The position numbers and the translations under genes are program-made. The notes beneath the pieces were generated by a model, which saw nothing but the letters and a program-made list of their open reading frames with translations, did no database searches and was not told the origin of the DNA. Shown in pieces: positions 49,409 through 52,489 of a DNA stretch of 64,000 nucleotides; position 1 is the first letter of the stretch; the number at the start of each line of letters is the position of its first letter. This DNA comes from an uncultured Bacteroidales bacterium. Its GTDB lineage: Bacteria; Bacteroidota; Bacteroidia; Bacteroidales; UBA932. Location: contig ONII01000006.1 of assembly GCA_900317845.1 (NCBI GenBank), positions 15,172-79,171 on the forward strand, given 5' to 3'.

Positions 49409-50398
49409 TTACAGGATAAGGGCCGACAGTTTGGCGGTTTCCAGCAGAAAGCCGTCGTGGCCAAAATTGGAGCTGATTTCGACATACCGGGCGCCCGGAA
49501 TCCAGGCGGCCCACTGCCGGCCTTCCGCCGGCGGGAAAATGAGGTCGGTGTCCACGGCGACCACCGTTGTGCGGGCCTTGATGCCCTGCAGGGCCTTTTG
49601 CACGCCGCCCCGTCCCCGGCCCGCGTTGTGGCTGTCCAGGGCATTGCACAGGCAGTAGTAGGAGTAGGCGTCAAAGCCGCGGCGCACCAGTTTTTCGCCC
49701 TGGTACCGCTCGTAGGAGGCTACACGGCCGGCAAAGAGGGTGTCCGGGTCTTCTTCGGCCTGGGTGAGGCCATACCCTTTGAAACACCGGTAGCTGATAA
49801 GTGCCTGGGCCCGGGCGCATTTGAGCCCTTCGCGGCCGCCGGCAAGCGAACGTGCCTGACGGAACGAAGGGTCCGCTTCCAGGGCCATGCGCTGGGCTTC
49901 CACCGTGGCCCCCAGGAAAGGGGAGATGCGGGGCGCTGTGCACAGGAGCAGGCAGCGGTCAAAGAGCTGTGGCTGCATCACGGCCCATTCCAAAGCATGG
50001 AATCCGCCGTTGGATGCCCCGATTAAAAGGTCGATTTTGCTAATTCCCAGGTGCTTGCGTACGGCCTCAAAGGCTAGCACGGTGTCGCGGATGGTTACAT
50101 CCGGAAAGTCCAGCAGCCAGGGACGCCCGGTAGCGGGGTTCTCCCGCGCCGGCCCTTCGGATCCATACGCGCTGCCCAGCATGTTCACGCACACCACGCG
50201 GCTTTTTTCCGTGTCGATGGTCTTGCCCGGCCCCACCATCTCCGGCCACCAGTCTTCCGGGTCGCTGTTGGCGGTAAGGGCGTGGCAAATCCAAATGACT
50301 TTCCCCGTCCCCTGGGAGGTATGGAAGACGATGTGCGCCTGCTCCAGCACCGCGCCGCATTCTAAGTTCAGGTTAACGGTAATCTCTTGTCGGATCAT
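49409..50398 (-). CDS. metX: Homoserine O-acetyltransferase
   Basis: CHALTANSD, WWPEMVGPG, GASNGG nucleophile elbow, FGHDGFL. Confidence 0.92.
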   Translation of the reverse strand: MIRQEITVNLNLECGAVLEQAHIVFHTSQGTGKVIWICHALTANSDPEDWWPEMVGPGKTIDTEKSRVVCVNMLGSAYGSEGPARENPATGRPWLLDFPDVTIRDTVLAFEAVRKHLGISKIDLLIGASNGGFHALEWAVMQPQLFDRCLLLCTAPRISPFLGATVEAQRMALEADPSFRQARSLAGGREGLKCARAQALISYRCFKGYGLTQAEEDPDTLFAGRVASYERYQGEKLVRRGFDAYSYYCLCNALDSHNAGRGRGGVQKALQGIKARTTVVAVDTDLIFPPAEGRQWAAWIPGARYVEISSNFGHDGFLLETAKLSALIL

Positions 50399-51675
50399 GC
50401 TTTTGCGGCTTTCAGGGCTTGTTCAAGGTCTGCGATAATGTCCTCGGGGGCTTCCAGGCCCACGCTGAAGCGGATGAGGTCCGGGGCGATGCCGGCCGCC
50501 CTGAGCTGCTCGTCGGAAAGCTGTCGGTGCGTGTGCGAGGCCGGATGCAGGACACAGGTGTGGCAGTCGGCTACGTGGGTTTCGATGGTGGTGAGTTTGA
50601 GGGCGTCCAGGAAGCGGTTGTCAAAGGCGCGGCCGCCCTTGAGGCCAAAGCACAGCACACCGCTGCAGCCATTCGGCAGGTACTTGATAGCCAGGTTGTG
50701 GTGCGGGTCGCTTTCCAGGCCGGGGTAGTGTACCCAGGCTACGTCCGGGCAGTTCTCCAGCCAGCGGGCCACCTGGAGGGCGCTGCTGCTGTGGCGGGGC
50801 ATCCTCAGGTGCAGGGTTTGCAGGCCCAGGTGCAGGTAAAAGGCGTTCTGGGGGCTTTGGGTGCTGCCCAGGTCCCGCATCAGATGGGTGACGGCCTTGG
50901 TGATAAACGCGGCTTTGCCAAACTTCTTGGTATAGGTGAGGCCGTGGTAGGAGGCATCCGGCGTGGTGAGGCCGGGGAATTTGTCGGCGTATTCCTCCCA
51001 GGGGAAGTTGCCGCTGTCCACTACGGCGCCGCCCACGCTGGTGCCGTGTCCGTCAATGTATTTGGTGGTGGAATGCGTTACAATATCGGCCCCCCATTCG
51101 AACGGGCGGCACAGCACGGGCGTAGCGAAGGTGTTGTCAATCACCAGCGGCAGGCCGTTTTTGTGCGCCACGGCAGCCCAGCGGGCAATGTCCAGCACCT
51201 CTACGCCGGGGTTGGAGAGGGTTTCCCCGAAGATGAGCTTGGTGTTGGGGCGGATGGCGGCCTGAATCTCGCTGTCCGGGGCATCGGCCTTGATAAAGCT
51301 AACTTCAATGCCGAATTTTGCCAGTGTAACGCCCAGCAGGTTGAAGGTGCCGCCGTAGATGTTGTTGGCCGCGACGATATGGTCTCCTGCGCCGGCGATA
51401 TTCAGGCAGGCAAACAGGTTGGCGGCCTGGCCGGAGGAGGTGAGGATGGCGCCCACGCCGCCTTCCAAGGTACAAATTTGCGCAGCTACGGCATCTACCG
51501 TGGGGTTCTGCAGGCGGGTATAGAAGTACCCGGTCTCTTCCAGGTCAAAGAGCCGGCCCATCTGGTCCGAGGTTTCATATTTAAAGGTAGTGCTCTGGAT
51601 AATGGGAAGCTGCCGCGGCTCGCCCTTCTTGGGGCTGTAGCCGGCATGTACGCACAGTGTGTCAATCTTTGCCAT
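50395..51675 (-). CDS. metY: O-acetylhomoserine aminocarboxypropyltransferase/sulfhydrylase
   Basis: FYTRLQNPT, SSGQAA, IYGGT, VIDNTFATP, HSTTKYIDGHG, IRFSVGLE; start at MAKIDT. Confidence 0.93.
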   Translation of the reverse strand: MAKIDTLCVHAGYSPKKGEPRQLPIIQSTTFKYETSDQMGRLFDLEETGYFYTRLQNPTVDAVAAQICTLEGGVGAILTSSGQAANLFACLNIAGAGDHIVAANNIYGGTFNLLGVTLAKFGIEVSFIKADAPDSEIQAAIRPNTKLIFGETLSNPGVEVLDIARWAAVAHKNGLPLVIDNTFATPVLCRPFEWGADIVTHSTTKYIDGHGTSVGGAVVDSGNFPWEEYADKFPGLTTPDASYHGLTYTKKFGKAAFITKAVTHLMRDLGSTQSPQNAFYLHLGLQTLHLRMPRHSSSALQVARWLENCPDVAWVHYPGLESDPHHNLAIKYLPNGCSGVLCFGLKGGRAFDNRFLDALKLTTIETHVADCHTCVLHPASHTHRQLSDEQLRAAGIAPDLIRFSVGLEAPEDIIADLEQALKAAKA

Positions 51676-51696
51676 GGTTCTTTTATTTATCATAGT

Positions 51697-51886
51697 ATCC
51701 GAAGGATATAGGTTCCCGAACCGTCGCTTCGCGACCCCTCCCATTTGCAACGCGCCTGGCGGCGCGGCTCTGGGCCCCTCCCGTTCCGGGAGATTGGTTT
51801 TCCCCCTGTAATCCCCCTAGGGATACTTGCCCTTACGGGGCACGGCCGAGGGTGGCCATGGGTTCGGGAACCTATACCCTTCGGAT
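51697..51886 (-). ncRNA. Candidate structured 5' leader or MITE-like element upstream of metY
   Basis: 26-bp terminal inverted repeat (single mismatch is G-U on the minus strand) enclosing about six hairpins; starts next to the -7 box TATCTTTG at 51889-51896 (minus). Confidence 0.6.
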
Positions 51887-52021
51887 TGCAAAGATAGACT
51901 GTATGGAAAAAACGAACAAGCGTTTAAGAAAATTTGGAAAATATTACTATATTTGCTTTTAAAATTGATAGATAAAGAAAAATCGACCTGTGGAAATAGC
52001 TGTTTGTAGAAAATTATTCTT

Positions 52022-52489
52022 ATGAGCGAAATGGTACTGGACGCAGTGGATCTGCAAATTCTGCGGGCGCTGCAGGAAAATGCGCGGCTCACCACCAAGG
52101 AACTGGCCGCGCGCGTGAACCTTTCCACTACGCCTGTGTTCGAGCGCATGAAGCGGCTGGAAAAGAGTGGCTTTATCAAGCAGTACGTGGCGGTGCTGGA
52201 TGCGGAAAAGCTGGGGAGGGGATTCACCGTGTTCTGTTCCGTGAAGCTCAAGCAGATGAACCGCGCCGTTGCCCGAGACTTTATCTCCGTGATCCGGGAC
52301 ATCCCCCAGGTGGCGGAATGCTACAACATCTCCGGCGAATACGACTATCTGCTAAAGATTTACGCGCCCGACATGAAGTACTACAACGAGTTCATCATCA
52401 ATGTCCTGGGCAACATCAGCGCCATCGGCTCCATCCTCTCCTCCTTCGTGATGGACGAAATCAAGAACACCCACGCGCTGTATTTGTAG
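52022..52489 (+). CDS. Lrp/AsnC family transcriptional regulator
   Basis: LDAVDLQILRALQENAR...ELAARVNLS..PVFERMKRLE; ECYNISGEYDYLLK; divergent from met operon. Confidence 0.95.
   Translation: MSEMVLDAVDLQILRALQENARLTTKELAARVNLSTTPVFERMKRLEKSGFIKQYVAVLDAEKLGRGFTVFCSVKLKQMNRAVARDFISVIRDIPQVAECYNISGEYDYLLKIYAPDMKYYNEFIINVLGNISAIGSILSSFVMDEIKNTHALYL

Follow-up and report, generated by a model that had tools for sequence, protein, structure and literature searches.

A structured element in the leader of a metY-like gene of an uncultured Bacteroidales bacterium is very probably one copy of a hairpin-forming repeat family

The window, by which we mean the whole stretch of 64,000 nucleotides that was analysed, carries a metY-like gene and, divergently oriented, a gene for a regulator of the Lrp/AsnC family (Table 1). 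The divergent arrangement of the two genes points to a regulatory link, and the Lrp/AsnC protein is the likelier controller of metY. The spacer between them holds a -7 box of the Bacteroidetes type, TATCTTTG, which we take, from established knowledge of Bacteroidetes promoters, to belong to the metY promoter. A long palindromic element starts 3 nt downstream of this box, and 22 nt separate its end from the start codon of metY (ATG at 51673-51675). Since the box is conserved and the element begins so close behind it, the element probably starts at or near position +1 of the transcript. Ahead of the ATG, the metY frame continues without a stop across the 3' arm, P4 and box B of the element as far as an ATG at 51744 and a TTG at 51750, which would formally allow 23-25 additional N-terminal residues; the Pfam alignment and the orthologues favour the ATG at 51675.

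Table 1. Genes, promoter box and parts of the palindromic element between the divergent genes, in window coordinates
Feature	Coordinates	Strand	Remarks
metY-like gene (O-acetylhomoserine sulfhydrylase family)	50395..51675	(-)	Cys_Met_Meta_PP, E = 9.7e-122, profile positions 1-381 of 381
Whole palindromic element	51698..51885	(-)	188 nt, 'long' variant; one among about 15 copies in the genome
Outer closing stem, 3' arm	51698..51722	(-)	pairs with 51861-51885; from folding and arm comparison
P4 hairpin GTCGC-GAA-GCGAC	51723..51735	(-)	dispensable; missing from one subfamily
Box B, TGGGAGGGG	51735..51743	(-)	
P3, variable hairpin closed by CCC...GGG	51740..51774	(-)	holds GCGCC-GCCA-GGCGC; sequence varies from copy to copy
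Box A, GGGAGGGGCCC	51772..51782	(-)	family-invariant; the P1 loop pairs with its 5' part or with the bases immediately before
Hairpin CTCCCG-GAA-CGGGAG	51778-51792	(-)	
Extra module of the long variant, three small hairpins	51783..51840	(-)	between P1 and box A; absent from short variants
Hairpin ATCCC/GGGAT	51811-51824	(-)	
Hairpin GCCC-CGTAA-GGGC	51829-51841	(-)	
P1 hairpin CATGGCC-ACCCTC-GGCCGTG	51841..51860	(-)	outer pairs covary
P1 loop	51848-51853	(-)	5' strand of the proposed pseudoknot
Outer closing stem, 5' arm, TCCGAAGGGTATAGGTTCCCGAACC	51861..51885	(-)	25 nt; partner is 51698-51722
-7 promoter box of metY, TATCTTTG, Bacteroidetes type	51889..51896	(-)	TAnnTTTG kept here in 15 orthologous spacers
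Lrp/AsnC-family regulator gene, divergent	52022..52489	(+)	AsnC_trans_reg, HTH_24

A preliminary description of this DNA had placed a multibranched RNA-like element at 51676-51896 and had offered two readings of it: a new leader responsive to methionine or SAM, or a MITE-like repeat that had landed at the transcription start. The element is present, within the narrower limits 51698-51885, and the wider span takes in the -7 box and a short piece of leader. Its closing stem comprises 25 bp, which become the 26 bp first reported when a flanking A-T pair is included, and the six inner hairpins named at the time were all located within it. The sole mismatch of the closing stem is, as had been stated, a G.U on the minus (metY-sense) strand and a C.A on the opposite strand. 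The RNA of the minus strand folds with a minimum free energy of -116.4 kcal/mol versus -81.3 kcal/mol in shuffled sequences (z = -7.05), and none of 200 shuffles was as stable; the plus strand reaches -108.9 kcal/mol (z = -5.9). Given these z-scores on both strands, the structure of the element is far beyond chance.

The position in the 5' leader of a gene of the methionine pathway, the multibranched fold and the purine-rich loops all speak for a new riboswitch that responds to methionine, SAM or homocysteine and controls metY. Rfam, however, gave no match at gathering scores over the whole window and none at E <= 10 in the element region, where chance matches alone were returned, in line with the earlier failure to recognise a SAM-I, SAM-II or cobalamin consensus. 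Nor was an expression platform recognised: neither a terminator nor a sequestering helix was seen in the 22-nt tail.

The genome to which the window belongs (G000; 2.4 Mb in 39 contigs, 97.75% complete) contains about 15 copies of the element, in both orientations, and the core seen at metY thus recurs at 14 further places in unrelated genes. Five copies are long (188-202 nt) and ten are short (119-175 nt), the short ones being devoid of a module of about 60 nt between P1 and box A; this module of the long variant was found in relatives also, at other loci. In no fewer than nine cases the copy is embedded in a long ORF whose frame it leaves open, and Pfam recognises domains of the host protein before and after the copy in that one frame. 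The host ORFs encode a GT2 glycosyltransferase, TilS, TruB, a MiaB-like radical SAM enzyme, RibF, TruA, a nucleotidyltransferase (NTP_transferase), an M20 peptidase and an aminotransferase, and relative to the host gene four of these copies have one orientation and five the other. A count of genomic copies had been set beforehand as a check that could refute a leader dedicated to methionine, and the many copies found, 15 in all, sit beside or inside unrelated genes instead of recurring upstream of the genes of one pathway.

Relatives were searched with a strict pattern made of the P1 hairpin and box A, whose reversed version, used as a control, gave zero matches. Of 36 genomes sampled from the same genus, 16 contain the family, each with between 1 and 29 matches, and this strict pattern did not match in 24 genomes of other families in the order. 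A scan of about 185,000 species, one genome each, returned at least 118 stretches, and all those listed come from MAGs of uncultured Bacteroidales from animal guts (ruminant, horse and bird among the matches listed), which belong, where named, to Candidatus Cryptobacteroides. Copies span 97-202 nt and reach 29 or more per relative genome. Of the 93 copies located in other species, 60 are intergenic; the remaining 33 fall within long ORFs, 10 of them in sense and 23 in antisense orientation. To judge from these matches, we are dealing with a family of repeats of about 100-200 nt carried on the chromosomes of uncultured Bacteroidales (Cryptobacteroides) from gut and rumen. A phage origin was also considered and rejected on zero matches to the pattern in viral contigs. 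Inspection by eye of the copies in G030, an informal look at replication-strand bias, gave no obvious strand switch along the contigs. In MAGs of two relatives, contigs break exactly at copies within the M20 and truA genes (G010:C184/C97, G088:C25/C23); repeats of the element therefore fragment assemblies and split gene calls.

Comparison of the orthologous lrp-metY spacers bears directly on what the element does at this site. Ten relatives (G078, G007, G093, G128, G145, G130, G084, G139, G144 and G143) have a spacer of 154-171 bp with the conserved -7 box and without the element. In G164, an element sits at the identical point (TATCTTTGCAA then TCCGAAGG...) and in the same orientation, with a short core and a different central hairpin. 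G010 and G088 share the outer stem of G000 and have the core inverted, and the sequence of the 5' arm of the outer stem at the G000 site is found at the orthologous site of all three (G164, G010 and G088). The spacer of G089 carries, at the exact insertion point of G000, a different hairpin element of about 105 nt (TCCGAGAGCG...CTCAGGA), which suggests that the content of a resident palindrome is replaceable. As far as these alleles tell, what is conserved at the metY site is the stem, and neither the core nor its orientation.

A sensor that works on the sense strand cannot survive inversion, and on this point the riboswitch reading fails. Neither presence nor sense orientation is conserved in the orthologous leaders, which are empty in ten relatives and hold a flipped core in two, and the copies at about 15 places in unrelated contexts speak equally against a leader that responds to methionine or SAM. 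The SAM riboswitch classes (SAM-I, SAM-II and related Rfam families) resemble the element in their position in the leaders of methionine genes and in a pseudoknot-containing fold; the element differs from them in having no Rfam match, in being untied to genes of sulphur metabolism and in an orientation that is not conserved. We thus regard a new riboswitch at metY as wholly implausible, and, on comparison of copies and sites, the element in the metY leader very probably does not sense methionine or SAM. For the locus, this removes one false riboswitch candidate. For similar cases, it illustrates that a riboswitch-like leader can be a repeat, and that copy counts and orthologous empty sites settle the question fast. 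Instead of a methionine sensor, the element is very probably one copy of a family of small, non-coding, hairpin-forming repeats.

A repeat may still acquire a function where it has landed. The metY copy could be an exapted cis-regulatory leader, that is, a former repeat which now serves as a 5' stem-loop (about -113 kcal/mol) and sets metY expression without a ligand; such a stem-loop could shield the transcript from 5'-end-dependent decay or offer a site to a double-strand RNase. The start of the element just past the conserved -7 box, probably at or near +1, a site kept occupied in four or five related species and the extremely stable fold all fit this idea. Yet ten relatives manage without the element, and orthologous alleles vary both in orientation and in core type, hence only the stem, and not the sequence of the core, could matter at metY. 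We consider exaptation unlikely and hold to the reading as a dispersed repeat.

Inversion and replacement were also seen at fixed sites inside genes. In the linker of truB, the element is antisense to the gene in G000 and G164 and in the sense orientation in G088, G089 and G010, at the same place and with the same stem as in the first two; the same inversion, with the central hairpin unchanged, distinguishes the two members of a second pair of species. Elsewhere this linker contains other palindromic families or only 33-51 nt, and the frame is kept in every allele. Across species, the insertion points in truA and in the M20 gene hold the present family in either orientation, with a long, a short or a third type of core, and in further species two other palindromic families, a stem-only palindrome, a footprint, or nothing. 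The insertion point is empty in G145 and G130, as is the M20 allele of G164. Filled and empty alleles differ by 189 nt in truA and by 123 nt in the M20 gene, both multiples of 3.

At one of these insertion points, G089 has a 12-nt footprint flanked by AATTAT repeats. In truA of G089, 13 nt identical to the 5' arm had suggested that the outer arm arose as an inverted duplication of the host flank; this was rejected, as the same arm sequence is also present at the truB copy, and for the same reason the truA allele of G089 is more readily explained as a deletion footprint between GGGTA repeats. In truA of G034, an in-frame, stem-only palindrome of 42 nt without a core lies at the insertion point and may be a remnant of core loss. 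Three further repeats were noted at these sites. A second palindromic family (ATGGCCGG..CCGGCCAT then CGTCATTCCCGG..CCGGGAAT) occupies, in truA and the M20 gene of G007, the same in-frame points as the family of G000. A third in-frame family, with the motif TGTCATTTCGAGCG(A/T)AGC and the peptide ..CHFERS.. or ..VISS.., is found in truA of G130, the M20 gene of G078 and truB of G130 and G007. A fourth repeat (GGCCGTACTCAGCCGCAGCGAAGCGAG..., peptide ..GRTQPQRSE..) lies in the truB linker of G032, G096, G174 and G143, sometimes as tandem or inverted pairs.

Within the family, it is the core that is shared between copies. On its + strand it consists of P1 closed by GGCC/GGCC, a 3-nt linker, NNGGG followed by AGGGGCCC (box A), P3, box B and an optional P4. 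The family form of box A is GGGAGGGGCCC and that of box B is GGGAGGGG; the CCC of box A and the GGG of box B close P3, and AGGGG forms the remainder of box B. The CCCNN of the P1 loop pairs with the NNGGG just before the invariant GGGAGGGGCCC: both N positions of either strand were left free in the search pattern, and all five pairs are formed in each of 67 distinct sequences from many species. The two variable pairs are distributed as GC26/UA26/AU14/CG1 and UA38/CG28/UG1. Their covariation score is 0.373, against 0.135 +/- 0.010 in shuffled sequences, with none of 500 shuffles reaching 0.373; kinship among copies inflates such statistics, and six different pair combinations are present nonetheless. 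When the partner strand is slid by 1-3 columns, pairing falls to 29-54%. The outer pairs of P1 covary as well (CG39/UA19/AU3 and GC34/AU18/CG9). The covariation analysis of homologues proposed at the outset has thus yielded a fully paired helix with compensatory changes, and the pairing of CCCNN with NNGGG, taken together with P1, indicates an H-type pseudoknot or possibly a mutually exclusive alternative helix. Furthermore, alignment columns 10 and 25 agree in most sequences: the nucleotide that separates the 5' arm of P1 from the loop strand is identical to the one at the centre of the 3-nt linker, with A/A 24 times, G/G 38 times and another combination 5 times. The agreement persists within each pseudoknot class. 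It may reflect a non-Watson-Crick contact or shared ancestry.

The outer stems and P3 were assessed by simple pairing counts. In 93 complete copies, the outer stems range from 15 to more than 45 bp and are 95% Watson-Crick paired, with sequences of widely different base composition, from AT-rich to GC-rich, that mostly show no relationship from one site to another. Their wobble pairs favour the + strand (52 G.T vs 23 A.C). Gapless pairing of P3 from its base gives, across copies, 634 Watson-Crick, 41 G.T and 11 A.C pairs. The fold of the + strand is, moreover, 5.8 kcal/mol more stable on average (93 copies vs 14), a difference biased by the richness of this strand in G. The pseudoknot covariation and the excess of wobble pairs on one strand, together with stems that are paired and yet site-specific, hence indicate selection for the folded form of a single strand, be it DNA or RNA. 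The preliminary description had argued for selection at the RNA level. A folded single strand does appear to be under selection throughout the family, as the covariation and the wobble excess suggest; this strand may be DNA as well as RNA, and its conservation is not evidence of ligand sensing.

The same observations could be read as the signature of a structured non-coding RNA encoded in many copies, for example a ribozyme, an sRNA acting in trans or an RNA that binds protein, in which the pseudoknotted core is the functional RNA and its genes are tolerated inside others. Strong covariation in P1 and the pseudoknot, invariant purine boxes, the excess of G.U over A.C on one strand and the non-Watson-Crick A/A or G/G correlation of two loop positions would all be expected of such an RNA. 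Against it, one third to two thirds of the copies lie inside ORFs and have no promoters of their own, antisense being the commoner orientation among the ORF copies of other species; cores flip at fixed sites, the family has no Rfam relative, and folded single-stranded DNA accounts for the same covariation. We judge a non-coding RNA family to be improbable and retain the repeat as the preferred explanation.

We searched for hallmarks of mobility and for partner enzymes. Direct repeats flanking 93 copies did not differ in their distribution of lengths from those of shuffled pairings; in the absence of a target-site duplication, classical transposition is not demonstrated. The 118 loci listed revealed no internal ORF or autonomous copy, and no parent IS with matching ends was seen in them. 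The DUF559 endonuclease (PF04480) was set aside as a partner because it is missing from G000, the one genome searched for it. The Y1_Tnp profile gave weak matches only, to ORFs of about 310 aa, which do not track the presence of the element: they occur in element-free genomes and are missing or below threshold in element-rich ones. An IS200/RAYT-type Y1 transposase was rejected as a partner on these grounds. Occupied sites may mostly be old and vertically inherited; the word 'mobile' refers to the patchy distribution and the multiple sites per genome. The second reading of the preliminary description, a MITE-like repeat at the transcription start, is correct insofar as a dispersed, non-coding palindromic repeat lies 3 nt past the -7 box. 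With terminal repeats that are unconserved and without target-site duplication, the family nevertheless lacks two standard traits of MITEs.

We propose the following scenario. The element entered the lrp-metY spacer recently, in an ancestor that G000 has in common with its nearest relatives, and has been inherited since. Copies inside genes are most probably translated as extra loops, as open frames and lengths in multiples of three suggest. At a given site the core flips, likely via recombination or template switching between the arms, a process that would also keep the arms complementary. Cores switch subtype or erode to footprints, and would be homogenised or re-seeded from other genomic copies. 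What a putative enzyme of the host or of the element recognises for copying or maintenance may be the pseudoknotted fold that the G-rich strand adopts as single-stranded DNA or as RNA. At metY the effect would be incidental: the first ~190 nt of the mRNA would become a very stable stem-loop, which may alter stability or translation. More speculatively, and we regard this as a doubtful though conceivable extension, the core could be a functional folded single-stranded DNA or RNA whose putative machinery would duplicate, invert and exchange the cores of resident palindromes, many of which lie in essential genes. If true, this would be a new kind of structure-guided element that continually rewrites protein loops in a major lineage of gut and rumen bacteria.

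Rickettsia provides the best-known cases of palindromic elements inserted in frame in essential genes, and an analogous system in abundant rumen and gut Bacteroidales suggests that the phenomenon is wider than thought. As described in the cited account, the Rickettsia palindromic elements (RPEs) are about 150 bp long, form ten families and include dozens of in-frame insertions in unrelated metabolic genes (PMC10969869). We see them as the closest analogue of the present family, by functional resemblance and not by membership; the likeness rests on features and not on a comparison of sequences, and across phyla one would not expect homology. Each is a set of palindromic repeats of about 100-200 nt without coding capacity, which comprise several families within one bacterial lineage, both have many in-frame insertions in unrelated housekeeping or metabolic genes, by which the host protein gains, in the present case most probably, a peptide segment, and, as far as that account goes, no parent transposase is known for either (PMC10969869). 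Indeed, the palindromic repeats described here lie in frame in many unrelated ORFs with the host domains intact. The hosts of RPEs are intracellular Alphaproteobacteria, whereas the present hosts are free-living gut Bacteroidales. The present family differs further in that its pseudoknotted central core is conserved while its long arms are site-specific, in that its cores flip and are replaced in place, and in its use of both orientations and several reading frames, owing to which no single conserved peptide exists.

With MITEs the family shares small size, the absence of coding capacity, inverted terminal arms and high copy number, and both can land in promoters or leaders and alter expression. 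In contrast to MITEs, its terminal arms are unconserved between copies, target-site duplications were not found in 93 copies, and no parent IS with matching ends was found in the 118 loci listed. REP/REPIN elements, which reportedly come with RAYT transposases (the work of Bertels and Rainey from 2011), likewise form long hairpins whose arms stay paired through compensatory change, and, like the present family, they are vertically inherited populations within one lineage of which one strand is presumably the active form. REPINs are extragenic, however, and the sequence of the REP arm is conserved and recognised, whereas the present family has variable arms, a conserved centre and many genic copies. 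Y1-transposase-like genes do not track it, and we found neither a conserved REP arm nor a cognate single-copy RAYT gene.

The literature searched on Cryptobacteroides repeats, on in-frame palindromic elements in Bacteroidales and on the core motifs yielded no published description, and the family is apparently an undescribed, RPE-like one with a structured core. It bears on gene calling, on protein-family alignments and, because contigs break at its repeats, on the assembly of MAGs. As a methionine leader the element would be ordinary; it is more interesting as a member of an RPE-like family. What sets this family apart from RPEs, MITEs and REPINs is a conserved centre in place of conserved ends, a pseudoknot supported by covariation, and the flipping and replacement of cores in place. 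The pseudoknot, the site-specific stems and the in-place flips offer concrete handles on how such elements propagate, a question that RPEs share.
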